64,000 nt of DNA from positions 8,965 to 72,964 of the forward strand of contig JAYEFQ010000079.1 of the NCBI GenBank assembly GCA_034658655.1, in the 5' to 3' direction. The stretch is from Bacteroidota bacterium (lineage in GTDB: Bacteria > Bacteroidota > Bacteroidia > Bacteroidales > ML635J-15). A model generated the notes under the pieces. The model was given only the letters and a program-made list of their open reading frames with translations, ran no database searches and was not told where the DNA came from. Position numbers and translations under genes: made by a program. Of this stretch, positions 4,412 through 64,000 are shown in pieces; the first letter of the stretch is position 1; each line of letters starts with the position of its first letter.

Positions 4412-5740
4412 ATGAACAAACAAAACTTATACAAAATTGGATTGTCAACGGCAATTGCTGTAGTTATAGCAAATATGGTGGGAACAGGAGTTTTCACAAG
4501 CCTAGGGTATCAGGTAATAGACCTAAAACACGGCTTTACAATTATCATGCTATGGGCAATTGGAGGAATGCTTGCACTATTTGGCAGTTTTGCATACGGT
4601 GAGTTAGGCGCAAGTTTACCCCGTAATGGAGGAGAATACAATTTCCTTTCTCGAATTTACCATCCATTTTTAGGATTTCTTGCTGGATGGGTATCCATCA
4701 TGATTGGATTTGCCGCCCCAATTGCAGCGGCATCACTGGCAATGGGGGATTACTCAATTGGGATGCTAGGCGGTGATGACCCAAATCAAATCAAAGAAAA
4801 AATAATTGCTGTCGGAATTTCCATAATAATTTCTGCAATTCACCTGCAAAATTTAAGAGCAATTTCTCGCTTTCAGAAATTTTTCACCGTCTTTAAAATT
4901 ATTTTAATTATTGTACTTATCATTCTGGGATTCTCTTTAACAGACGGGTCTCAAATCAGCTTTGCACCTACCAAACAAAGCATTAACGACATGTTTACCA
5001 TGGCATTTGCAGGCAGCTTGGTGTGGGTAATGTTGGCATATTCGGGATGGAATGCCGCAGCCTACATTGTGGATGACATGAAAAATCCGGGGAAAAACCT
5101 TCCGAAATCATTATTTATTGGAACTGCATTGGTTGCAGTGCTATATGTTTTACTCAACATGATGTTTCTTTATGTTGCGCCTATTAGCGATTTGATTTCA
5201 CAAAAAGATGTCGGTAATGTCGCCGCACAAAATGTATTCGGACATACCGGAGTAGCCATCGTTTCCGGATTAATTGCCTTTGCACTTATTTCTGCAATCA
5301 GCTCTATGATTTGGGCAGGTCCTCGCGTTAGTGCCGCAATTGGTGAAGACATGCGCCTTTTTAAATTCCTCAATACGAGAAACAGAAATAAAGTGCCATC
5401 TCAGGCAATTTTATTTCAACTCGGACTAATCATACCAATGATTCTGTTTGTTTCATTTAGCGATTTAATTGAATTTACTTCTGTTTTATTAAGTATTTTC
5501 TCATTTTTGACGGTACTCGGCGTTTTTGTGTTACGCGTTCGCGAACCAAAACTCAAACGACCATACAAAGCGTGGGGATATCCCATTACTCCAGCAATTT
5601 ATCTTATTCTCACCGGGTGGATGATTATCTTTTTCCTGAAAATGAAACCGAACATTCTTTTTGCTATTCTCCTAACTCTTATTGCCGGTGGAATTACGTA
5701 TTACATCAGCATTTTATTAAACAAACGATTGAATAAATAA
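4412..5740 (+). CDS. APC-family amino acid permease
   Basis: About 12 predicted TM segments, with a GTGVFTSLG N-terminal motif and SGWNAAAY. The ORF opens at TTG 4403, but ATG 4412 (MNKQNLYK) is the more likely start. Confidence 0.8.
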   Translation: MNKQNLYKIGLSTAIAVVIANMVGTGVFTSLGYQVIDLKHGFTIIMLWAIGGMLALFGSFAYGELGASLPRNGGEYNFLSRIYHPFLGFLAGWVSIMIGFAAPIAAASLAMGDYSIGMLGGDDPNQIKEKIIAVGISIIISAIHLQNLRAISRFQKFFTVFKIILIIVLIILGFSLTDGSQISFAPTKQSINDMFTMAFAGSLVWVMLAYSGWNAAAYIVDDMKNPGKNLPKSLFIGTALVAVLYVLLNMMFLYVAPISDLISQKDVGNVAAQNVFGHTGVAIVSGLIAFALISAISSMIWAGPRVSAAIGEDMRLFKFLNTRNRNKVPSQAILFQLGLIIPMILFVSFSDLIEFTSVLLSIFSFLTVLGVFVLRVREPKLKRPYKAWGYPITPAIYLILTGWMIIFFLKMKPNILFAILLTLIAGGITYYISILLNKRLNK

Positions 5741-6082: not shown

Positions 6083-6940
6083 TTGTACGCCTTTTCAGGA
6101 CCAGATTTTCTGCATGCTTACACTTTATTTCCCAATGCTAAAGATTATATTTTTCTGGCAAATGAAAAAATCGGACAAATGCCGGATTTTGATATCATAA
6201 CAGAGACTGAACAGCTTAGATATCTTCATAATATTGATCATTTTTTGCGTGATATTTATAAGCGCTCATACTTTATTACAAAGAACATGTTAACAGATAT
6301 AAGAGGAGAAAAAATAGAAGGTATTTTGCCGATATTTTATGTATTTTTATCCCGAACCGATCATGAGATTTTAAATGTAGAGGCAATAGAAATAGAAGAT
6401 GACGGCAGCTTATCTGTAATTCCGGACACTATCGACATTCCTAACACGACCTTTCGTGGGGTAAGGTTTTCGTTTCGCAAAAATGGAGAAACACAAGAAA
6501 AAACGCTCACTTATTTTTATTGTGATATTTCTGATGACGGATTTGTAAAAAACCCTGAAATGAAACCCTATTTAGAAAGCTTGGATATGATGAATGGATT
6601 TATAAAATCTGCATCTTACCTATTGCATTACCGTACATTTAGTACCATTCGAAATATATTACTTGATAAAACGCAAGCCCTATTTCAAGACGATACGGGT
6701 ATCCCGTTCAAATATTTTAACACAACAAGCAACAATTTTATCCTTTTCGGAAAATATGTGAAACCCATAGCCGACTTTAGTGAAAACTTAACTCAGCAAG
6801 ATTTAAAACAAACATACAGCAGTGATGATTACGAACATCAAGATTTGCCTTTTTCTTTAGGATATCATTGGTACACAAACAATCAAAACTATATGCTAAT
6901 TCTTAAAAACCAAGGACAAACAATTACTCCAAGTGATTGA
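6083..6940 (+). CDS. hypothetical protein, probably the C-terminal body of the 5747 lipoprotein gene
   Basis: Long ORF with no signal peptide and only a TTG start. The first in-frame ATG is 32 codons in (6179). It shares the frame of 5747-6037. Confidence 0.45.
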   Translation: MYAFSGPDFLHAYTLFPNAKDYIFLANEKIGQMPDFDIITETEQLRYLHNIDHFLRDIYKRSYFITKNMLTDIRGEKIEGILPIFYVFLSRTDHEILNVEAIEIEDDGSLSVIPDTIDIPNTTFRGVRFSFRKNGETQEKTLTYFYCDISDDGFVKNPEMKPYLESLDMMNGFIKSASYLLHYRTFSTIRNILLDKTQALFQDDTGIPFKYFNTTSNNFILFGKYVKPIADFSENLTQQDLKQTYSSDDYEHQDLPFSLGYHWYTNNQNYMLILKNQGQTITPSD

Positions 6941-8267: not shown

Positions 8268-9347
8268 TTATTGCTTTACAATTTTACGTGTGATGGTATT
8301 TCCACTGCTTAAATCTGAAATCCTAACCATATAAATTCCTGATTGTAAGCTAGAAATATCCACAGAAAAATCTGACTGCATAGTAGTTTCTCTTAACAAA
8401 GATTTTCCACAATAATCAAAAACAATCACTTGATATCCCTTTGGGGAATAAACAGAAATTTCTAAATTTAATACATCCTTTACCGGATTCGGGGAAATAT
8501 TTGCATCTTGTAAAACAACAGGGATACTGGAATTTGGTGGGTCTCCCCAAACATATTCTACAAATTCAGGATTATCAACATAAGGATTTCTATTATACTG
8601 CCAATCGTAAATAGCATTGTTTCGGTTCTGCTCTTTTACACTCACAGGGTCATTTTCATGCCAAGTCATTAGCATTTCTAATGCTCCTGACTTAATCTGT
8701 GATCCATCAACCATATCATTGCTGTTGAAACTTCCGTCTTCATTATAATAGCGAGTTGCCATATAAAAATAAATGCGTGCAAAATCACCTTTATACCCAT
8801 CAATGGGTTCAAAAACCGTTTCATTTGTCCATGACAAAGCAGAACTTCCCTTTTTACTTCCGTTAGTTGATGTCCAACTTGCACTACTTACTTCTCCATA
8901 AACTAAATTACTGCGTTGTCCATTCGTGTATCCATCAGTAGGCACAAGCATAACTAAATCAGTGTACATTGGAGATGCATCATTATACCACGATTTTGGC
9001 CAAGAATGTTCACGATTGTAACAAGATCCTTCGCCTGAATAATTGCCACATTGATCACTTCCAAAAGTAAAATCATACGAAGGTGTTCCACCGGGAACAT
9101 CACTATACATATCCCACACTAAATTGCTATCATCCGGCCTTGGGTCTGTATCTACAAACGCGTCCCATAAATCACCATAACTTAATGGATTATGATTATC
9201 AATAATATTATGCAGTGCTTGTTGTAAATCTTCACCATAAAGCCCATCAGCACTATCGTAATACCCTGCTGGAATTTGTGCAGTGGCAAGAATGGCAGAC
9301 AAAATGCCTGCCATTGTAAAAACAAATCGTTTGTAAAAAATGAACAT
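8268..9347 (-). CDS. secreted endonuclease I family nuclease with T9SS C-terminal sorting domain
   Basis: Signal peptide. Contains YYD...LHNIIDNH..LSYGDLW...VWDMYS...NREHSWPKSW, an endonuclease I-like pattern. The C-terminal 75 aa (ISPNPVKDVLNLEI...GIYMVRI) form a T9SS CTD. Confidence 0.75.
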   Translation of the reverse strand: MFIFYKRFVFTMAGILSAILATAQIPAGYYDSADGLYGEDLQQALHNIIDNHNPLSYGDLWDAFVDTDPRPDDSNLVWDMYSDVPGGTPSYDFTFGSDQCGNYSGEGSCYNREHSWPKSWYNDASPMYTDLVMLVPTDGYTNGQRSNLVYGEVSSASWTSTNGSKKGSSALSWTNETVFEPIDGYKGDFARIYFYMATRYYNEDGSFNSNDMVDGSQIKSGALEMLMTWHENDPVSVKEQNRNNAIYDWQYNRNPYVDNPEFVEYVWGDPPNSSIPVVLQDANISPNPVKDVLNLEISVYSPKGYQVIVFDYCGKSLLRETTMQSDFSVDISSLQSGIYMVRISDLSSGNTITRKIVKQ

Positions 9348-9350
9348 ATA

Positions 9351-10406
9351 CTATTCTTTAATTTCTTTAATTATGTAAATGTAAGCGGGAAAATGGTCAG
9401 AATATCCTCCCATATAGGTATCCCCAACATAAGTTCTCCATGGGTAACCTTTAAACCGACCGTCACGCTGCGTAAGTTCGATTTTATTATATACTTGAGC
9501 CTTATGATACTTATATGTATTCGGCTCACCCAAGGCTAAACCCTGACTAATAATCACTTGGTCAAAAAGATTCCATTTGTCACGATATGCACCAGAGCCA
9601 ACGCCATCACGAAAAAGCTGAGCATAAGGATTGAATAAATCACCCTTTTTCAATTCAGATTTTTTACGTTTTGCACGTAAATGTTCTTTTAATGATTCGT
9701 TTACCGGATCATCATTAAAGTCACCCATAACAACAATTTTTGCATCCTTATCTAATAGTTGTAAACTATCGACAATTTCACGAGTTTTATCCCCGGCAGC
9801 ATTACGTTTCGGACGGCTCGCTTTTTCTCCACCACGACGCGATGGCCAGTGATTAACAATAAAATGCATTAATTCACCATCAAAATTTCCGGAAACCAAC
9901 AAGTGATCTCTGGTTTTATCTTTCTTGTCGAAATCAAATGTCAAAGAAATTGATTTATAATCTGTTACTTCAAAGACAGACGTACGGTATAAAAAACCAA
10001 CATCAACCCCACGTTCATCTGGACCATCAACATGGACATAATCATATCCATATTTTTTCAGATCTGTTTTATTAATCAAATCTTTTAAAACAGTTGCATT
10101 TTCAATCTCTGAAACTCCAACAACAGCAGGCGGAAGTTTTGACAAATCTGCACCAATTTTTATAATTACTGAAGATAATCTCTCCAATTTTTCTTCGTAA
10201 ACTTTGGTATTATAGTTTTTATCTCCTTCTGGAGTAAACTCATCGTTAAGATAAATGTCTGGGTCATTAATTGTGTCAAACAAATTTTCAAGATTGTAAA
10301 AAGCAATTGTACTCACTTTAAATTGTTTCTCCTGTGCATTCACATTCATTGTGAGAAGAATTGTGAGCAGTGCAATTACGATAGTGTATAAGCGTTTCAT
10401 AAACAA
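9351..10406 (-). CDS. secreted endonuclease/exonuclease/phosphatase (EEP) family protein
   Basis: Signal peptide, N-terminal AFYNLENLFD and C-terminal GGYSDHFP are hallmarks of the EEP fold. There is a 3-nt gap to the endonuclease I gene. Confidence 0.75.
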   Translation of the reverse strand: MFMKRLYTIVIALLTILLTMNVNAQEKQFKVSTIAFYNLENLFDTINDPDIYLNDEFTPEGDKNYNTKVYEEKLERLSSVIIKIGADLSKLPPAVVGVSEIENATVLKDLINKTDLKKYGYDYVHVDGPDERGVDVGFLYRTSVFEVTDYKSISLTFDFDKKDKTRDHLLVSGNFDGELMHFIVNHWPSRRGGEKASRPKRNAAGDKTREIVDSLQLLDKDAKIVVMGDFNDDPVNESLKEHLRAKRKKSELKKGDLFNPYAQLFRDGVGSGAYRDKWNLFDQVIISQGLALGEPNTYKYHKAQVYNKIELTQRDGRFKGYPWRTYVGDTYMGGYSDHFPAYIYIIKEIKE

Positions 10407-10423
10407 AATATTTTCAAATTTAA

Positions 10424-11359
10424 TTAGTTATCAAGCAAATTTCTTGCCATGGATTGGAAAACTCCTTCTTTTAAAGCATAAGCCGAACGAATTAACACTC
10501 TAATCTGGAACAAATTTATCAAAAATTCTGTAAAAACCGAAGCTAATGGAATCATTTCTACTCTCATAGCTTCCATTCCGGGTATTTTCAATCGTTCTTC
10601 ACGGGTTTTCTGTATTAAGCTTTGAGATATTTCAAGCCAATAATCCCGAGGTATTTCATACCACTCAACATGTTTGTATGTCCCAACTAAACCGGCTTTA
10701 TGGATATACATAGATGCAAAAGTATCAAAACTTCCAGACGATCCTATAAGTACTTTTGGTTGATATTTTTCAACAATTGAAACTAATTCCTTCATTTCAA
10801 TCGACAAATAATTTCGGATATCATTAATAGTTTGTTCGGTAAGTGGATCAGATGGTTGAAATTTCAACAATAAGCGTGCAATTCCCAAATCAAATGATTT
10901 GCGGTAATAAACTTTTTCCATGCTAGCAATTTGTATTTCATTGCTACCTCCGCCAATATCGAGCAGCAAATATGGCTTCTCGTCCATAGGAACAGCCTGC
11001 CGAACTCCAAGATAAATAAACTCCGCCTCTTGTTCTCCTGAAATAATATTGAGTTGATATCCGGTAAGGGCTCTAACTCGCGATATTATTTCTTGCTGAT
11101 TTTTAGCATTTCGAACGCCTGAGGTGGCAAACACTTGTGTTTTTTCAACTTTAAACTGATCAACGATTTTCTTATATTTTGTCAATACACTAAGTACTCG
11201 CTGAATTGCCGGTTCAGAAATATTCCCGTTTGGAAAACCTTCTGCCCCAAGTTTAATTGCTTGCTTCTCAGCATGAATTACTTTAAGCTTATGGGGCGAC
11301 CACTCTGCAATACTCAAATTACAGGTATTGGTTCCTAAATCAATACTGGCAAGTTTCAT
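10424..11359 (-). CDS. Ppx/GppA family phosphatase (exopolyphosphatase-like)
   Basis: ASKHA-fold motifs are present: IDLGTNTCNL, FATSGVRNAKN, LLLDIGGGSNE. Confidence 0.8.
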   Translation of the reverse strand: MKLASIDLGTNTCNLSIAEWSPHKLKVIHAEKQAIKLGAEGFPNGNISEPAIQRVLSVLTKYKKIVDQFKVEKTQVFATSGVRNAKNQQEIISRVRALTGYQLNIISGEQEAEFIYLGVRQAVPMDEKPYLLLDIGGGSNEIQIASMEKVYYRKSFDLGIARLLLKFQPSDPLTEQTINDIRNYLSIEMKELVSIVEKYQPKVLIGSSGSFDTFASMYIHKAGLVGTYKHVEWYEIPRDYWLEISQSLIQKTREERLKIPGMEAMRVEMIPLASVFTEFLINLFQIRVLIRSAYALKEGVFQSMARNLLDN

Positions 11360-11366
11360 ATTAGTT

Positions 11367-12725
11367 TTAATAACGAATCCATTTCCATAATTCTTTATAG
11401 CTCACCTTTTTCCCGTACATCAGAATTCCTATGCGATAAATTTTTCCTGATAACCATACCATAAAGATAAAACTAAGAATTAATATAGAAAATGATAAAA
11501 CCAGATCAAAAACGGGTACTCCAAATGGAATTCTCACCATCATAACAATTGGTGATGTAAATGGAATCATTGAAAACCACCATGCCAAACTACTTTCCGG
11601 GCTATTAATAACGGAAAACATCACAATTAAACCCAAGACAAGTGGCAGTGATATTGGCAGCATAAACTGCTGAGTATCTGCCTCGTTGTCAACTGCTGCA
11701 CCCACCGCAGCAAACATCCCGGCATACAATAAATATCCGAAAAGAAAATAAAACAAAAAGGCACCTATAAGTAAGGGGAAGTTTATTGAAGAAAGAGCAT
11801 TGAGCGCTTCCTCTATTTTGCCAGAAAATTGATCTTGAATTGCATTATCACCAACTTGCGAATTTGAGGATATAAGCTGCTCCATCTGTGGTGATTGTTG
11901 AAACCCTTTTACATCATCAAGCAAAATAAATTGTGCAGCTGTCACAATCCCAAACGTTAATATAATCCATAAAATAAATTGTGTTAAACCTACCAATGCA
12001 ATTCCAATTATTTTTCCCATCATAAGTTTAAACGGGCGTACAGACGAAACTATGATTTCCACAATTCGGTTAGATTTTTCTTCAATCACACCACGCATAA
12101 CCTGAGATCCATACATAAATACAAACATGTAAATCAGGAATCCGGAAATATAACCGATAATCATGGCAATTTCTGTACTCGTACTTTTTTGTTCTCCATC
12201 ATCATTAATGATACGTGTTTTTATATCGACATTAGTTTCCACCGCTTTAATCACATTGCGAAGTACTTCTTTTTCAACACCAAGCTCTTTCCCTTTAATT
12301 TGAAGTTTCGCATCTTTAATGCACTTCTCCATGTGATTAAGCATTTCCATCTGAACTGCTAAACCCGGCTGTTTATATGAATACATCATTGCACTGCTAT
12401 GCCCTGTACTCACAATATTCTGTGGAATATAAAGCACAGCATAATAATCGTTTTGCTTCATTAGCTCAAGTGCAGCATCAACATCCATACTTTGGAGATA
12501 TTCGTATTTCAAATACTCGCTGTCCTCAAACTGATCAACAAATAAAAATGAGTCATCCAAAATTGCAACGGTTTTTTCCTCGGTATCTTTAATTTGTGCT
12601 AACCAAACCGGAACAATCATTAAAGCCGCAAACAATATCGGCCCCAGTATGGTCATAATAATAAAAGTCTTCTTTTTAACTCGACTCAAATATTCTCGTC
12701 TTATAATAATGCTAGTTCTATTCAT
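11367..12725 (-). CDS. ABC-2 type transporter permease (NatB-like)
   Basis: 452 aa with an N-terminal TM segment, a large loop and 5 C-terminal TM segments. It overlaps the upstream ATPase gene by 8 nt. Confidence 0.7.
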   Translation of the reverse strand: MNRTSIIIRREYLSRVKKKTFIIMTILGPILFAALMIVPVWLAQIKDTEEKTVAILDDSFLFVDQFEDSEYLKYEYLQSMDVDAALELMKQNDYYAVLYIPQNIVSTGHSSAMMYSYKQPGLAVQMEMLNHMEKCIKDAKLQIKGKELGVEKEVLRNVIKAVETNVDIKTRIINDDGEQKSTSTEIAMIIGYISGFLIYMFVFMYGSQVMRGVIEEKSNRIVEIIVSSVRPFKLMMGKIIGIALVGLTQFILWIILTFGIVTAAQFILLDDVKGFQQSPQMEQLISSNSQVGDNAIQDQFSGKIEEALNALSSINFPLLIGAFLFYFLFGYLLYAGMFAAVGAAVDNEADTQQFMLPISLPLVLGLIVMFSVINSPESSLAWWFSMIPFTSPIVMMVRIPFGVPVFDLVLSFSILILSFIFMVWLSGKIYRIGILMYGKKVSYKELWKWIRY

Positions 12726-13674
12726 GGCTCAGATTATTTACAGGTTCGTCGCTTCCTTCAACTAAAGAAATAAAGACAGAATTCATACTTGGTATAATCT
12801 GTCTGAAAGATTTCAGCTCCCCTTTGGGCAATAAAAATTTGATTAAATCATTGGCGGAAAAATTATCGTTTAAGCGTTTTAAACGAATACTTGTTTCTCC
12901 GTTTAATGGCTTAATTTCCATGATTTCATAATCGGAAGTCATCGCCATATCGGGATTTGTAAACTCCCCATCAAAAATAATTTCATAAACATCAGGAGCA
13001 TAGCGTTTACGAATAGTATCGATATTTCCCTCAACAACAATTTTTGATTTATTGATTAAGGCAATATCATCGCAAATTTCTTCAACGGATGACATATTGT
13101 GCGTACTAAAAATTACAGTTGCCCCTTTATCACGCAACTCCAGAATTTCATTTTTCATCAAATTTGCATTAATTGGGTCAAATCCGGAAAATGGTTCATC
13201 AAAAATCAACAATTCCGGCTCGTGCAATACGGTTGTGATAAACTGTACCTTCTGCGCCATTCCTTTCGACAACTCTTCCACTTTTTTATTCCACCAAGAC
13301 TCAATTCCAAATTTTTCAAACCAATATTTTAAGCGCTTTGCAGCATCAACTCTGCTTAAACCTTTAAGTTGAGTTAAATACATGGCTTGCTCCCCGACCT
13401 TCATTTTTTTGTATAATCCACGTTCTTCAGGTAAATACCCAATGTTTCGAATATGTTTTCCGTTAAGCGGCTCACCCATCAATTCAATTTTCCCGCCATC
13501 GAGACTAGTAATTTGATTTAAAATGCGAATAAAACTGGTTTTTCCTGCACCATTCGGACCAAGTAAGCCATAAATACTCCCCTTGAGAACAGATAGACTT
13601 ACATTGTCTAATGCTTTATGACCGGCATATTGCTTTGTCACATTTTCTGCTTTGAGTATGTAATCCATATGCAA
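12718..13674 (-). CDS. ABC transporter ATP-binding protein (NatA-like)
   Basis: Walker A GPNGAGKTS, signature LSKGMAQK and Walker B LLIFDEPFSGFD. Confidence 0.9.
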   Translation of the reverse strand: MHMDYILKAENVTKQYAGHKALDNVSLSVLKGSIYGLLGPNGAGKTSFIRILNQITSLDGGKIELMGEPLNGKHIRNIGYLPEERGLYKKMKVGEQAMYLTQLKGLSRVDAAKRLKYWFEKFGIESWWNKKVEELSKGMAQKVQFITTVLHEPELLIFDEPFSGFDPINANLMKNEILELRDKGATVIFSTHNMSSVEEICDDIALINKSKIVVEGNIDTIRKRYAPDVYEIIFDGEFTNPDMAMTSDYEIMEIKPLNGETSIRLKRLNDNFSANDLIKFLLPKGELKSFRQIIPSMNSVFISLVEGSDEPVNNLSHE

Positions 13675-13964
13675 ATAAATTTGACGTGAAAATAATGATA
13701 ATATACGTGAATGCTGTTATTTTTTTAATAAAGAATTACGCTTGTCCGATAAAAAATTAAGAGCAGAAAGATATTAAGATATAATTGTATCAATTAAAAA
13801 AACTAATAACAAAATGCAATCATGTTTTTATATCCTACGATATCAGCATCTTACAAATAAGGCAGCTATGGGTATAATGTAAATAAACACAATGGGCTTG
13901 CGTTTATTTACACGTTGAGTGTAATACTAAAAAAAAGCACCGTGCAATTGAACAATTCAATTCT

Positions 13965-13995
13965 TATATGTATATTTGCAAAATAAATACATATA
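13965..13995 (+). promoter_or_regulatory. 9-bp perfect inverted repeat (TATATGTAT-N13-ATACATATA) bracketing the island promoter; candidate operator
   Basis: The arms at 13965-13973 and 13987-13995 are exact reverse complements. The spacer contains the -7 box. Confidence 0.4.
13971..13978 (+). promoter_or_regulatory. -7 box TATATTTG (TAnnTTTG) for the ATPase/RloB operon
   Basis: Exact motif 33 nt upstream of ATG 14011. Confidence 0.45.
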
Positions 13996-14010
13996 TTAAA
14001 ATAAGAAAAA

Positions 14011-15327
14011 ATGATTATTCAAGAATTTAGTTTCGGAAACTTCAGGTCATTTAAGGATATTCAAACCTTAAATCTTACATCCGCTAAAATAAAATCAAAA
14101 TATAAATCTATTGATGAAAGCAATATTATTACAGATTCTAAATACAAAGATGCTTCATTTCTTAAATCAAAAGCAATATACGGGGCCAATGCGTGTGGAA
14201 AGAGTAATATTGTAAAAGCTTTTGTAACTTTTATTCGCATTATTAAACATTCAGTTAAGGATGAAGACGTTTTAGATTTAATAGAACCTTTTAGATTCAG
14301 TACGGAAACAGAAGATGAACCTAGTTTTTTTCAATTAATATTTTGGATTGATAACGTTAGGTATAGATATGGATTTGAAGCAGATGAAAAAGAAATTCAA
14401 TCAGAATGGCTTTTTGCTAGACCAAAGGAACGTGAACTACCTTATTTCATTCGAGAAAATCAAAAGATTATTGAAATTGATAAAACAAATTTCAGTGAGG
14501 GAAATAAGTTAATGAGTCTATTTGATGATGAACCATCAGATAATGAAATTTTCAGAGGTAATTCTTTATTTCTTTCTAGTATCTCATCATTAGGATTCGG
14601 AAAACTATCCAAACTCATTGTGAATAATATCGCTTCAATTTTTGTTATTAATGGTCTTGGTCATCAAGGTTTATATGAATACGCTGGAGATTCATTGAAT
14701 GACGATACTATGAAAGATTACATATTGAACTTTTTAAAATATGGCGATACTGGAATTCAGGATGTAGCAACAATTGAAATAAATTCAGAAGATTTACCTG
14801 CCGATTTAGATGAGGAAACAAAAAATGAAATTAAAGAAAACAAACCAAGAGTTTTAATCTCAGCCAGACAAAAATTTGACAGTGAATTAAATTTCAGAGA
14901 AAATGTACCACTTCCTTTCAGAATGATTGAATCAGAAGGTACTCTAAAACTTTTTGAGCTGAGTCCTTTTGTATATGAAGCTATTAAGGAAGGAAGACCT
15001 TTAATTATTGATGAGTTTGATGCTAGATTTCACCCTTTGTTGACAAAAAAAATAATTGAGTTATTTAATTCTGAGAAAAACAAAGCTTCCCAATTAATTT
15101 TTATGACACATGATACAAATTTATTGTCAGCCGATTCTCTAAGAAGAGACCAAATTGAATTTGTAGAAAAAGATAAATATGGTGCTAGTCATCTTTATTC
15201 ATTAGTACAATTTAAAGGGATTAGAAATAATGCTTCATTTGAAAAAGATTATATTCAAGGGAAATATGGAGCAATCCCATTCCTAGGTGATTTTAATAAA
15301 CTTTTTAATTTTGAAGCTAATGCCTAA
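14011..15327 (+). CDS. ABC/AAA_21-type ATPase (AbiLi / RloA / AriA-like), putative defense ATPase
   Basis: N-terminal FGNFRSFKD, Walker A GANACGKSN (aa 58-66), signature-like SEGTLKL, Walker B PLIIDEFD and H-loop FMTHD. The gene is very AT-rich. Confidence 0.85.
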   Translation: MIIQEFSFGNFRSFKDIQTLNLTSAKIKSKYKSIDESNIITDSKYKDASFLKSKAIYGANACGKSNIVKAFVTFIRIIKHSVKDEDVLDLIEPFRFSTETEDEPSFFQLIFWIDNVRYRYGFEADEKEIQSEWLFARPKERELPYFIRENQKIIEIDKTNFSEGNKLMSLFDDEPSDNEIFRGNSLFLSSISSLGFGKLSKLIVNNIASIFVINGLGHQGLYEYAGDSLNDDTMKDYILNFLKYGDTGIQDVATIEINSEDLPADLDEETKNEIKENKPRVLISARQKFDSELNFRENVPLPFRMIESEGTLKLFELSPFVYEAIKEGRPLIIDEFDARFHPLLTKKIIELFNSEKNKASQLIFMTHDTNLLSADSLRRDQIEFVEKDKYGASHLYSLVQFKGIRNNASFEKDYIQGKYGAIPFLGDFNKLFNFEANA

Positions 15328-16006
15328 AAAGACTAAAGCCATAAAAGTGACTGACAGAAAAAAGGCTTGGTTGAAAAAGGTTAAACCATCTACCTATGAG
15401 ATTGAAACGAAAGAAACCAATAAGATTATTTTAATCGTTGGTGAGGGTCAAACTGAAAAGTTATACTTTGAATCTTTTCCTGTTTTAACCCTTACAGTTG
15501 AAGTTGTCGATTTAGGAGGTCAAAGCAAGCAGAAATTAATTGAATCAACTGAAAGTATTGTCAAAGAAAGAACGATAAAATATGACGAGATTTGGTGTGT
15601 TTTTGATATGGATATAAAAAAAGGAGAAAAGAAATTCTCTGATTTTGATAATGCAATAAAAAGTGGAGAGGCAAAAGGATATAATATTGCATATTCAAAT
15701 GATGCATTTGAAGTTTGGTTTTATCTGCATTATCAATATAATGATCAAGAAAATCATAGGAAATTTTACTACAAAGCTTTAAGTGATAAATGGAATCTTA
15801 ATTATGAGAAAACTGGAAAAGCTTATGATTTTTGTAAAACAATTTATAGTAAATTGTTGAGTGATGAAGATTCTTGTCAAGCTAAAGCAATTGAACGAGC
15901 TAAAAAACTGTTTAAAGCACAAGAAAATTTAGATTTTCATAAACAAAATCCAGTAACAAAAGTTTACGAATTGGTTGAATATTTAAACTCTAAGAAAAGA
16001 AAGTAA
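15320..16006 (+). CDS. RloB-like / Toprim-like protein (AbiLii-like), putative nuclease partner
   Basis: ATG 15320 overlaps the ATPase stop (ATGCCTAA). ILIVGEGQTEKLYF supplies the conserved Glu and WCVFDMD supplies DxD, which together form a Toprim signature. The C-terminal NPVTKVYELVEYL resembles RloB family ends. Confidence 0.7.
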   Translation: MPKKTKAIKVTDRKKAWLKKVKPSTYEIETKETNKIILIVGEGQTEKLYFESFPVLTLTVEVVDLGGQSKQKLIESTESIVKERTIKYDEIWCVFDMDIKKGEKKFSDFDNAIKSGEAKGYNIAYSNDAFEVWFYLHYQYNDQENHRKFYYKALSDKWNLNYEKTGKAYDFCKTIYSKLLSDEDSCQAKAIERAKKLFKAQENLDFHKQNPVTKVYELVEYLNSKKRK

Positions 16007-16175
16007 TATTGCTAACACGCAATATAAAAAATGGGCAAAAAGTGGCAAATATGAGCGAATTAACAAAATAAAACGGTGTGGAAAATTGAAAAATTGGAAT
16101 TTCAAAATGCCCAAAATTTCATATTGCAATCGTTACATTTTTTAGAAAACCATGATAAAGATTGGCAAAAATTAC

Positions 16176-16207
16176 ATAAAAACTTTACAAACTTTATACT
16201 CGTCTCA
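16176..16207 (-). repeat. copy C of a conserved intergenic element (core TGAGACGAGTATAAA on the minus strand)
   Basis: The reverse complement reads TGAGACGAGTATAAAGTTTGTAAAGTTTTTAT. The 15-nt core is identical to 37219-37233. Confidence 0.6.
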
Positions 16208-16305
16208 TACTTACTAAAAATACGGCATGATTTTTATTACAGCTTTATAAAACAATATTTTTTAAGACATAGAGTTATTAAAAATGATACTATCTTAGCA
16301 AATCC

Positions 16306-17706
16306 ATGAAGCTAAATTTTCGACATATTATATTATTGTTTGCAGTAATTTTAATATTTCAAAATCTCAAAGCAACCCGTATTCACGGGACAGCAGAAGA
16401 TTATGCAAATTTTGAGCTAGTGTTTTATCATTATAGCGACTTACTGACAGAAAAAACGGACACACTCTTTACGCTTCGCTTGGATTCAAATGGAATCTTT
16501 GACAAACAGTTTGAAATCGCGGATACTACTCCTGTATTTACGCTGGTTGGTATTTATAAAATATGGTTTGTTGCAGAACCCAATGGGAATTATGACTTGG
16601 TTTTTCCTGATTATGTTGAGAAAACAAATGCTGAAATTTATAATCCCTTTTTTAACCCAATTTTATTAATGGCAGGGATAAAAGGACAAGATAAAACCGA
16701 CTTAAATTATTTGATTAATCGATTTGACCGATTGTACAATGATTATCTCAATACCCATTTATTAGATTTCCTTGCCGGAGGAAGAGATTCTGGTGTGGAG
16801 TTTTATATTGATAGTTTAAAACAGGATTTTTCTTATCATGAAAACAGTTATTTTAATGCGTGGAAAAAGTTTCGCTTTGCAAATTTAAGACGTATTGCCT
16901 ACGAACGCAACCATCGATTTACAATCAATCAATATTTCAGACAAGATGTAGTGCATTATCAAAACCCTGCTTATATATTTTTATTTAAAGAATTATTTGA
17001 AAATTATTTTGACCGGTTTCTGCTACGTCCTGATGGAAAAGAATTGCTCAAGGCTGTCAATTTAGCAAAAAGCCCTCATGCAATTTCAAAAGTACTTAGT
17101 AGAATGTTTGAGCTTGATAATCAAGCACTGCGTGAATATGTTATGATAAAAGGACTTCGAGATGCCTATTTAGGTGACAACTTTAAAAAACAACCCATAT
17201 TAATAACACTAGATTCAATTGCTGATTTTTCAAACTATCCTGAACATCGAATTGCGGCAAAAAATGTCATTGAATCACTTACTCATCTTGCAAAAGGCAC
17301 TTACCCACCAGATTTTAGTTTTTCAACAATTGACGGAGAAAAAGGAAATATTTCTGATTTGAAAAATCGTTATTTATATGTGGCTTTTTATCAAACAGAG
17401 CTTACAACTTGTCAGGAGGAAATTGCTCCATTAATTGAGCAAGCAATAAAACACAATGGTGATTTTGAGGTGATTATGGTTTTGTTTGATGAGGATAAAT
17501 ACAAGGCAATAAATCGTTTAAAACATTTAGATATTCCTTTTAATGTTGTTTTTCCTGACAATCCCGAAAAAATTAAAAAAGCATGGGAACTTAAGACATT
17601 CCCGATGTATTATCTTGTTGACCCTCAAGGAAAATTCATTTTTTCACCAGCACCTTCGCCAATTGAACATTTTGAAAATTATTTCTTTCGATATGTGAAA
17701 CATTAA
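16306..17706 (+). CDS. secreted protein with C-terminal thioredoxin-fold (TlpA/redoxin-like) domain lacking the CxxC pair
   Basis: Signal peptide. The C-terminal PDFSFSTIDGEKGNISDLKNRYLYVAFYQTELTTCQEEI...YYLVDPQGKFIF aligns to the TlpA pattern (FWASWCGPC) with only the second Cys retained. Confidence 0.55.
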   Translation: MKLNFRHIILLFAVILIFQNLKATRIHGTAEDYANFELVFYHYSDLLTEKTDTLFTLRLDSNGIFDKQFEIADTTPVFTLVGIYKIWFVAEPNGNYDLVFPDYVEKTNAEIYNPFFNPILLMAGIKGQDKTDLNYLINRFDRLYNDYLNTHLLDFLAGGRDSGVEFYIDSLKQDFSYHENSYFNAWKKFRFANLRRIAYERNHRFTINQYFRQDVVHYQNPAYIFLFKELFENYFDRFLLRPDGKELLKAVNLAKSPHAISKVLSRMFELDNQALREYVMIKGLRDAYLGDNFKKQPILITLDSIADFSNYPEHRIAAKNVIESLTHLAKGTYPPDFSFSTIDGEKGNISDLKNRYLYVAFYQTELTTCQEEIAPLIEQAIKHNGDFEVIMVLFDEDKYKAINRLKHLDIPFNVVFPDNPEKIKKAWELKTFPMYYLVDPQGKFIFSPAPSPIEHFENYFFRYVKH

Positions 17707-63338: not shown

Positions 63339-64000
63339 TTAAAAAGTGCTAGATATTGATAACATTAGTCCGTTAGATGCAGGTACAGTTCGACAAACAC
63401 CACCGACACACATTACACCTTGTCGTTGTTTTCCATAAGATAATTGAACTCTGCTTCCTCCACTGATATATCCTAAACCTGCAGTATAATAATGATATCT
63501 TTCGTCAATATTGCTGTTTCCATAATTCCAACTATCCATAACGGTAAAGAAAAATTTCGGAATACTAAACTCTAACAAGCCCATTGCCCAATCGCCTTTG
63601 TCATCATCGGTAAACATTCCTTGAAATTCTCCTCTAAGGCTGGTTTTTCTGTCAAATTTATATGTGATATCAGCAATCGCAATATTTGCATGAATCATAT
63701 CATGAAATTCTGATTGCATTAAAACCTCGTTATTAAGGGTTAAATTTTGATAAGTCAGTACGAATTTCAGAGATTTTGATATTTTTTTTGTGAGCTCTAA
63801 ATTAATATCCTGATAGAATAATTCATCGCCAATGCTAAAGAATGGAGATTCATAGCCCAAGGTTCCACTTGCTCCAATAGGAATCGTATCATTAATCGGA
63901 CTTCTTGGGACATTGTGTACGCGTGAGTAATTTAAGGCAACACTTGTTCCGTATTTTCCACCAAGTTTTGATTTCCTCTTAAAATTATACATAATTTCAG
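63339..64000 (-). CDS. DUF6029-like beta-barrel protein, C-terminal part (5' end lies outside the window)
   Basis: The frame stays open to the window edge. The C-terminal ...GVMCVGGVCRTVPASNGLMLSISSTF matches the DUF6029 tail as I recall it. Confidence 0.45.
   Translation of the reverse strand, partial: EIMYNFKRKSKLGGKYGTSVALNYSRVHNVPRSPINDTIPIGASGTLGYESPFFSIGDELFYQDINLELTKKISKSLKFVLTYQNLTLNNEVLMQSEFHDMIHANIAIADITYKFDRKTSLRGEFQGMFTDDDKGDWAMGLLEFSIPKFFFTVMDSWNYGNSNIDERYHYYTAGLGYISGGSRVQLSYGKQRQGVMCVGGVCRTVPASNGLMLSISSTF

Follow-up and report, generated by a model that had tools for sequence, protein, structure and literature searches.

An AbiL-type ATPase-RloB gene pair on a putative attC-type cassette in a Bacteroidales bacterium

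Two overlapping genes occupy an AT-rich island

The subject of this work is a pair of overlapping genes, coding for an ATPase and an RloB-family protein, in a 64-kb stretch of DNA from a Bacteroidales bacterium (GenBank assembly GCA_034658655.1, contig JAYEFQ010000079.1, positions 8,965 to 72,964 of the forward strand; hereafter, the window). An annotation made from the sequence alone (hereafter, the original prediction) had proposed that the pair is a horizontally acquired, AT-rich candidate anti-phage module. All coordinates without a prefix are window positions, and labels of the form L007 refer to loci with which the window was compared.

The first gene (14011-15327, plus strand) encodes an AbiLi-type ABC/SMC-like ATPase of 438 amino acids (aa), as assigned by Pfam, PADLOC and motifs; the second (15320-16006, plus strand) encodes an AbiLii-type RloB-family protein of 228 aa, assigned by Pfam and PADLOC, that is a putative metal-dependent nuclease effector. 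The two genes are adjacent, co-oriented and form one operon, in which the ATG of the RloB gene at 15320 overlaps the ATPase stop codon by 8 nt within ATGCCTAA (15320-15327). The two genes are translationally coupled by this overlap, and most of 42 complete copies of the pair have the same arrangement. As had been predicted, the two open reading frames (ORFs) are flanked by non-coding gaps of 336 nt (13675-14010) on the left and 299 nt (16007-16305) on the right; the left gap is ~342 nt if the neighbouring ABC-exporter ATPase begins at its ATG, as called in L001. Moreover, all motifs quoted in the original prediction were located at residue level, i.e. FGNFRSF (8-14), Walker A GANACGKSN (58-66, with K64) and SEGTLKL (308-314) and, in the C-terminal part, Walker B LIIDEFD (331-337) and THD (366-368) in the ATPase, as well as GEGQTE (41-46) and FDMD (95-98) in the RloB partner.

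The island that contains the pair (2469 nt) has a GC content of 28.4%, which is the lowest among all same-size windows of the 64 kb (mean 35.5%, sd 2.0) and lies 3.6 sd under the mean; bins of 1 kb agree with this low GC. The AT-richness first noticed by a hand count is confirmed for the island. No restriction-modification (R-M), transposase or integrase genes adjoin the pair in the window. This agrees with the original prediction as far as genes are concerned; however, that prediction overlooked an attC-like recombination site that fills much of the 299-nt gap.

The pair has the gene content of an AbiL module

In profile searches against Pfam, the ATPase matched AAA_21 (5.9e-31, 109 bits) and, weakly, SMC_N and AAA_15, and its partner matched RloB over model positions 1-195 of 195 (4.5e-41, 141.6 bits); both domain assignments are strongly backed by these matches. 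The AbiL layout that had been proposed is likewise recovered by PADLOC, in which the ATPase matched AbiLi (3.4e-88, 293.8 bits) and the RloB protein matched AbiLii (2.6e-27). The PADLOC model for AriA (PDLC02980) also matched the ATPase (2.8e-28), far below AbiLi and over a model that spans the generic AAA_21 region. The PADLOC matches of the pair to GajA, PtuA and HEC/PDC models were partial, with the GajA models covering only ~330-377 of the ATPase, i.e. about 50 residues. NCBIfam holds no family for the ATPase or the RloB partner, and a phmmer search of the PDB with the ATPase returned nothing.

Each of the two proteins has thousands of relatives, mostly in Bacteroidota and labelled merely "AAA family ATPase" or "RloB family protein"; for the ATPase, 6389 homologues were found that are up to 95% identical. 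Among 67 RloB relatives with 32-68% identity, the residues E42, E46, D96, D98, S126, N127, E131 and H137 are at least 90% conserved. All 67 match AbiLii in PADLOC, and a few also match, weakly, PDC-M12B, HEC-01B and mad4/DUF4276, which are partners of other ATPase systems. Residue 41 of RloB (15440-15442), just before Glu42, is Gly in the window protein and its close clade (LIVGEG) and Cys in at least 90% of the more distant relatives (LIVCEG).

In total, the profile matches indicate that the locus is an AbiL-type two-gene module with the genes by which PADLOC and DefenseFinder define this system, and with a phenotype that is a prediction. The pair is not PARIS because neither the RloB protein nor any of the 67 relatives matched DUF4435/AriB in Pfam or PADLOC, and it is not OLD or Gabija because its domains are unfused and reside in two separate ORFs. 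An R-M-embedded RloAB system was also ruled out, there being no hsdR, hsdM or hsdS genes around the pair. The original prediction had likened the pair to PARIS, OLD and Gabija; what stands of this comparison is that a separate ATPase and a putative Toprim-like partner are found as in PARIS, but the pair belongs to none of the three.

The pair lies on a cassette with a probable promoter and an attC-like site

The sequence around the pair suggests that it rides an integron-type gene cassette of ~2.2 kb (~13914-16134) with its own promoter and a 3' attC-like site. The non-coding flanks would be long because they hold the cassette leader and this recombination site.

On the left, the cassette boundary (R' box) GTTGAGTGTAATAC (13914-13927, plus strand) is degenerate relative to GTTGGCAATAATAC, the consensus of the family. 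About half of the 42 complete copies have this consensus, located between -87 and -97 relative to the ATG; in the window, the box is at -97. Downstream of this box, a leader block ATTCTTAT..TATATTTGCAAAATA (13960-13985, plus strand) shows little or no variation among 20 cassette copies taken from unrelated contexts. In Bacteroidetes, the promoter consensus has a -7 box TAnnTTTG, and such a box (TATATTTG) lies at 13971-13978, 32 nt upstream of the ATPase ATG; from this match, we infer that the leader block is a promoter of the Bacteroidota type. A scan for sigma-70 promoters and terminators, which uses the wrong promoter type for this phylum, gave sites no commoner than in shuffled sequences.

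On the right, the RloB stop codon falls within an inverted repeat (R'' box), GTAATATTGCTAAC (16003-16016, plus strand), which corresponds to the left-boundary consensus read on the opposite strand. Nowhere else in the 64 kb is GTTGGCAATAATAC matched as well (two mismatches, minus strand). Similarly, GTACTATTGCCAAC, the reverse complement of GTTGGCAATAATAC, lies 0-3 nt after the RloB stop codon in about half of the 42 copies, even at 65-70% protein identity. Pairing of the 5' and 3' repeats in the mRNA was rejected as their function, the left repeat being upstream of the conserved promoter block.

The R'' box leads into an attC-like site (16007-16141 by covariance model, plus strand), a 121-nt imperfect palindrome that reaches from AAC at 16014-16016 to GTT at 16132-16134 and has the arms GCAATATAAAAAATGGGCA (5') and TGCCCAAAATTTCATATTGC (3'). 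It scored 69.3 bits with covariance model R1 and, with model R2, which was trained without the window sequence, it was the top match in the 64 kb (28.9 bits, E 4.5e-5). Moreover, its cognate arms ranked first of 17 in a duplex test. The 64 kb hold one full-length attC-like site and no IntI-like ORF, the combination by which isolated cassettes are recognised. A second covariance-model match at 63354-63381 (20 bits) was dismissed as chance; it consists only of the end motifs TATTGATAACATT..TCCGTTAGATGCA inside an ORF on the minus strand (63339-63992). A scan of 13000-17000 against Rfam gave chance-level eukaryotic matches only.

Directly before the GTT of the cassette lies a hairpin (13878-13912, plus strand) with a 15-bp stem (TGTAAATAAACACAA tgggc TTGCGTTTATTTACA), in which the inverted repeat is 93% complementary. 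The sequence of its 5' arm recurs in the L'' arm of the 3' site, as a direct repeat (13882-13897 and 16021-16036); thus, the hairpin is possibly an internally deleted recombination site of a preceding cassette. The covariance model did not detect it as a site.

Related cassettes form arrays with covarying sites

In the copies of the cassette, the flank past the right box is an imperfect palindrome that, measured from AAC to GTT, has a constant length of 120-127 nt. Between L031 and L032, the cassette is identical up to GTT and the sequence after it is unrelated. In Gillisia sp. JM1 (L079 1-21323, KE384218.1:2363089-2384411), the pair belongs to a 21-kb run of units that all point in one direction; the run also contains small unknown genes, AbiTii, MNT/HepT and ApeA-HEPN, and in it at least 17 AAC-N120-GTT sites were found, one after each unit. 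When the 7 nt after a GTT were compared with the reverse complement of the 7 nt before the next AAC, 5-7 of the 7 positions matched in 15 of 16 adjacent pairs; under the null, the mean was 2.4 of 7, and four of 273 non-adjacent pairs reached 6. The single exception spans an insertion sequence (IS) that splits a site. The rule also holds in L080, from a GC-richer genome, in which the inner arms are clearly compensatory. Such a relation between adjacent units is the hallmark of integron-style cassettes, which form circles and recombine at G|TT.

Comparison of the sites with each other supports that their pairing has been maintained. In an alignment of 22 sites, RNAalifold predicted 12 pairs, 10 of which have double compensatory changes; 93.1% of the cells are paired compared to 60.1% in shuffles (0 of 500 as high), the covariation score is 0.756 compared to 0.156, and pairing drops to 30-38% when the register is slid. 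Likewise, cognate arms have a mean duplex energy of -20.3 kcal/mol compared to -11.5 kcal/mol for non-cognate arms. Scans with the covariance models detected 65 sites, 52 of them in 32 loci and 13 in seven others, and all but three weak minus-strand matches lie on the cassette strand.

A solitary insertion in L003 (9756-12531) bears on how the cassettes move. There, the cassette is inserted at a GTT inside the DUF4160 gene of a tight DUF4160-DUF2442 pair, and in-silico excision from the left G to the terminal TT of GTT restores a DUF4160 ORF of 100 aa. The restored ORF, whose end lies 4 nt ahead of the DUF2442 start, matches the DUF4160 profile over 1-64 of 65 positions, compared to 1-40 for the interrupted gene, and no duplication is involved. 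Integron cassettes insert at genomic GTT sites, from which the concept of the isolated cassette derives (10.1101/2022.09.11.507474), and by sequence the restoration in L003 matches this published route.

Further co-directional arrays with sites of ~125 nt were seen in L080 (1-12150), L078 (2188-12147), L083 (356-10772), L032 and L029, and cassettes in the arrays include AbiTii, AbiJ-like, MNT/HepT, ApeA-HEPN, ParE, PIN and CD-NTase plus patatin. Sequence records with arrays include Gillisia sp. JM1 GCA_000424645.1 (KE384218.1, around 2.36-2.40 Mb), ENA ERZ21878364 contig_1 (around 2.15 Mb), ERZ25042269 ctg13231l and Mesonia aquimarina GCA_003667275.1; several of the array-bearing genomes are metagenomic. 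The IS in L079 (DDE_Tnp_1, 14627-15742) splits the site at 14533-15944, each half of which is detected by the covariance model. In L080, an identical element resembling a miniature inverted-repeat transposable element (MITE), ~115-130 nt long with the ends CAGACTGTCTAAAAA...TTTTTAGACAGACTG, lies at the G|T(T) crossover of two sites (~4811-4925 and ~6560-6680); its ends are also present in L082 (~12300-12335) and in the right flanks of L034 and L020. This element appears to target attC-like recombination sites.

The island is absent from a syntenic relative and the cassette is a mosaic

The window's own contig was matched only in two Logan assemblies. A search for syntenic relatives with the downstream 466-aa protein gave two Bacteroidales metagenome-assembled genomes (MAGs), GH38 (L007) and L008. 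By blastn, L007 is collinear with the window on both sides at ~84% identity (window 8268-13738 corresponds to L007 2426-7898, and 16209-20082 to L007 7904-11776). The inserted low-GC island is thereby delimited to 13740-16208; GH38 has AAAAA at the same spot, so that the flanks with the ABC exporter and the 466-aa gene are joined without the island. In L008, unrelated DNA lies at this intergenic spot upstream of the 466-aa gene, which may therefore be an insertion hotspot; L008 1-372 holds the inverted repeat TAGCCTGCATTATTCATGG...CGATGAATAATGCAGGTTAG.

Close homologues of the ATPase are always found with an RloB gene, in at least 10 unrelated neighbourhoods. In unrelated contexts, 2.06 kb of DNA are shared at 79-88% identity with constant ends, and the DNA similarity to the window always starts at 13954-13960 and stops at 15987-16028. 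The pair is thus a discrete mobile unit rather than part of the core synteny. Altogether, the empty site in the syntenic relative and the same cassette in at least 10 unrelated contexts support the horizontal acquisition that had been proposed from base composition.

On the left, 174 nt of island DNA lie outside the cassette, and on the right, 74 nt do. The left extra DNA (13740-13877, 138 nt) had no match in the compared loci or the rest of the window, and the extra DNA past the G|TT end (16135-16208) had no significant similarity to either; with the latter, a following cassette may begin. The island edges 13740 and 16208 showed no target-site duplications, and no DUF4160 or DUF2442 remnants, sought because of the context in L003, were found in the window flanks.

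Sliding-window DNA identity over 13954-16017 gave different closest relatives for different parts of the cassette. Identity in the leader and the first ~150 nt is 92-93% with L020 and 73% with L003; in the ATPase body (~14250-15400), it is 96-100% with L003; and in RloB from ~15450 on, it is 88% with L025 and ~70% with L003. The breakpoints lie near 14150-14250 and 15400-15450. By these identities, the window cassette is a three-way recombinant of leader, ATPase-body and RloB lineages. Thus, cassette lineages recombine and re-pair sensor and effector.

Copies in decay were also seen. RloB is cut to 159 aa in L013 (9589-10068) and absent from L014 (2516-3047), with the ATPase intact in each; in L087 (5965-7300), the ATPase is split into pieces of 205 and 219 aa.

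Structural models of RloB

A first AlphaFold2 model of RloB had a predicted local distance difference test score (pLDDT) of 73; with a deeper alignment, the pLDDT was 89 and the predicted template modelling score 0.81. The core is modelled as beta-alpha-beta-alpha-beta-alpha-beta, with E42 following the strand 35-41 and D96/D98 at the end of the strand 90-96. In the model, this placement of a Glu after strand 1 and a DxD at strand 3 is the Toprim arrangement. The leading Foldseek matches were generic three-layer alpha/beta folds, among them lumazine synthase and SGNH hydrolases; 2fcj, a small TOPRIM protein, ranked 20th, with the weaker RloB model only. HHpred links between RloB and Toprim families have been published (PMC10440598). 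We consider RloB a likely Toprim-like metal-dependent nuclease. The Toprim signature claimed in the original prediction holds in so far as the conserved Glu, the DxD and their places in the beta-alpha core fit, but no fold or profile link to Toprim was recovered.

In a library of viral protein models (BFVD), the sole significant match to the RloB model was an RloB-like protein of Myoviridae sp. ct25F5 (A0A8S5LTA7; E 7e-10, TM ~0.7); therefore, the RloB family occurs in phage genomes too.

Interpretation and alternatives

We think it likely that the locus is an AbiL-type pair on a solitary (SALIN-like) attC-type cassette and that, by analogy, it acts through a restrained nuclease. In PARIS, AriA keeps AriB inactive and frees it on sensing a phage protein, and AriB cleaves specific tRNAs (PMC11464382; 10.1101/2025.02.04.636281); P2 OLD has been reported as an abortive tRNase that is opened by destabilisation of its oligomer (10.64898/2026.07.10.737580). 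The statement in the original prediction that no such module has a settled mechanism is thus outdated, PARIS AriB and P2 OLD now being tRNases that are released or activated by their ATPase. By analogy with these systems, an oligomer of the window ATPase would bind the RloB nuclease and hold it inactive. A phage protein or nucleic-acid cue, sensed via the ATPase cycle, would release or activate RloB, which, with a metal site formed by Glu42 and Asp96/Asp98, would cut an essential nucleic acid, most likely tRNA. Translation would then stop and the infection would abort. The lactococcal AbiL acts after phage transcription (PMC13064643).

Several observations weigh against this interpretation. 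On the side of the vehicle, the window and the flanks of all loci, up to 10 kb long, yielded no integron integrase, noting that the arrays extend past the sequence examined, and the tyrosine recombinases near two arrays are generic (46 bits compared to an IntI cutoff of 265 in NCBIfam). The left box of the window copy has four mismatches to GTTGGCAATAATAC in 14 positions, from which it follows that this copy is probably no longer mobile. Single-sequence folding of the window site was no better than shuffles on either strand (z -1.1 and -0.1), and the claim of an attC-like site is therefore carried by the comparative evidence. The island edges 13740 and 16208 differ from the G|TT ends, meaning that there was no single clean site-specific delivery, or later decay; the copy is thus an array fragment or a decayed insertion. 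On the side of the effector, Foldseek searches of the PDB with both RloB models gave no match with E<=0.001, OLD, AriB and GajA being absent; among the 67 RloB relatives, there were no Toprim Pfam matches, even weak ones (E<=1); and a profile built from these relatives found nothing relevant among PDB sequences. Finally, the lactococcal prototype AbiL is mechanistically uncharacterised (PMC13064643).

The terminal repeats and the 3' palindrome might instead be the ends of a transposon or MITE, a terminator or an operator, such that the DNA moves by transposition or not at all. The 14-bp inverted repeats at both ends, the IS elements near some copies, the position of the palindrome just past a stop codon, which is the usual place of a terminator, and the missing IntI all fit this explanation. 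By contrast, the boundary rule chains neighbouring unrelated cassettes, L031 and L032 diverge exactly after GTT, and the palindrome keeps a constant length (120-127 nt), its arms changing in a compensatory manner where the sequences differ greatly. Moreover, no target-site duplications were seen, excision at G|TT restores a gene precisely and without a duplication, and the left repeat lies upstream of the promoter and hence outside the mRNA. Given these points, we regard transposon ends or a terminator as extremely unlikely. Another explanation is that the island is ancestral at this spot and was deleted in the L007 lineage, the window copy being not recent. L007 is the only informative relative with both flanks, the different DNA in L008 suggests that the spot is unstable, and the island edges lack integrase-type junctions. 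However, the GC content of the island is that of an outlier in the window, cassettes of the same family are demonstrably mobile, and the ATPase body has 96-100% DNA identity to a copy in an unrelated context while the flanking housekeeping DNA has 84% to the closest relative; an ancestral island is accordingly very unlikely, and acquisition of the cassette is preferred.

Two further alternatives concern function. RloB might have another chemistry, e.g. that of a hydrolase on a flavodoxin-like fold, in which case the analogy to PARIS and OLD would fail at the effector step. This would explain why generic three-layer alpha/beta folds lead the Foldseek matches and why no sequence-profile link to Toprim families or to Toprim proteins in the PDB emerged, but not the conserved residues in a Toprim-like core (Glu behind strand 1, DxD behind strand 3), nor the weak PADLOC links to PDC-M12B, HEC-01B and mad4/DUF4276. 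We consider a non-Toprim RloB unlikely. About as doubtful is the proposal that the pair is mainly a toxin-antitoxin (TA)-like addiction module, with RloB as the toxin and the ATPase as the antitoxin, that stabilises arrays or its own DNA and is not anti-phage. TA cassettes are thought to stabilise integron arrays. The cassette is indeed found among classical TA cassettes (ParE, PIN, MNT/HepT), and pairs of an AAA-ATPase and an OLD-Toprim protein behave as antitoxin and toxin in neutralisation assays (PMC10440598). Against this, the roles are not exclusive, PARIS having both, and lactococcal AbiL is defined by phage resistance (PMC13064643); the array neighbours also include Abi and CBASS-like units, and the solitary window copy has no array to stabilise. 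Anti-phage defence by a restrained nuclease is therefore kept as the preferred function.

Comparison with known systems

The closest known system is AbiL (AbiLi/AbiLii) of the Lactococcus lactis plasmid pND861, with which the window pair shares two co-oriented genes, ATPase first, that encode an AAA_21/ABC ATPase and an RloB-family partner. It differs in that it occurs in Bacteroidota and not in Firmicutes, on a chromosomal attC-bearing cassette and not on a plasmid, with an 8-nt gene overlap, and in being known from its genes alone. PARIS, which serves as the working model, also keeps its ABC ATPase apart from a putative Toprim-like nuclease, and the AriA and AbiL ATPases fall in the same AAA15/21 tree (PMC11464382); however, the effector in the window is RloB (PF13707) and not DUF4435, and AbiLii superposes poorly on AriB (PMC13064643). 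OLD of phage P2 and GajA of Gabija follow the same logic of ABC ATPase plus Toprim, but in one fused polypeptide rather than two proteins. RloA/RloB of Campylobacter type I R-M loci comprise the same RloB Pfam family and an AAA_21-type ATPase, whereas the pair has no hsd or R-M genes in its vicinity, be it in the window or in the further contexts that were inspected.

As to the vehicle, the likeness is to integron cassettes (SALIN, CALIN and sedentary chromosomal), which have an AAC...GTT imperfect palindrome with a G|TT crossover, a cassette 5' end complementary to the start of the cassette's own 3' site, and arrays in which the cassettes point the same way and TA and defence genes abound. 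For integrons, the attG route is also known to place single cassettes at a GTT outside arrays (10.1101/2022.09.11.507474), and defence systems are carried as integron cassettes (10.1101/2024.07.02.601686). The cassettes described here differ from those of integrons in that searches revealed no IntI, in their long outer pairing boxes (14 bp in the window cassette) and in their uniform site length (120-127 nt); moreover, the window cassette brings its own promoter and two genes. A tblastn search of all compared loci with IntI1 (an approximate query sequence) gave only a generic C-terminal match in L078, and the array in L083 has housekeeping genes at its borders and no recombinase.

As a defence system, the pair is routine, i.e. 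an AbiL homologue that standard tools detect, and the mechanism of AbiL is no more testable through it than through other copies. Its main value lies in the vehicle: a promoter-bearing two-gene defence module that would move as an attC-type cassette across Bacteroidota, land singly between or inside ordinary genes, and recombine sensor and effector halves. In the sequences compared, cassettes of this family are stockpiled in arrays of Flavobacteriia and other Bacteroidota beside TA, Abi, CBASS-like and unknown cassettes, and occur elsewhere singly in genes or intergenic DNA. What is new is this attC-type cassette circulating in Bacteroidota arrays, which is here a solitary, mosaic and probably immobilised copy.

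The phylum is unexpected since IntegronFinder surveys report almost no integrons in Bacteroidota (PMC9024848); reviews list Bacteroidetes among the integron phyla (PMC8618304). We found no published description of such cassette arrays in Flavobacteriia, which may already be catalogued as CALINs. Tentatively, we raise the possibility that Bacteroidota, and especially Flavobacteriia, have widespread and largely unrecognised integron-like arrays, with ~125-nt sites, own promoters and possibly a non-IntI recombinase, that act as defence and TA banks, seed solitary cassettes and shuffle sensor and effector halves. If these arrays are functional platforms, the notion of integrons as defence biobanks would extend beyond Proteobacteria, and an unidentified recombinase would be implied.

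Neighbouring genes

The 77-aa ORF with a GTG start in the right gap (16076-16309) overlaps the attC-like site as well as the conserved upstream region of the next gene and is most likely not a gene. To the left of the island lies an ABC exporter pair on the minus strand (12718-13674 and 11367-12725), and to the right the gene for the secreted-type protein of 466 aa (16306-17706). Other genes nearby encode Ppx-GppA and nucleases.

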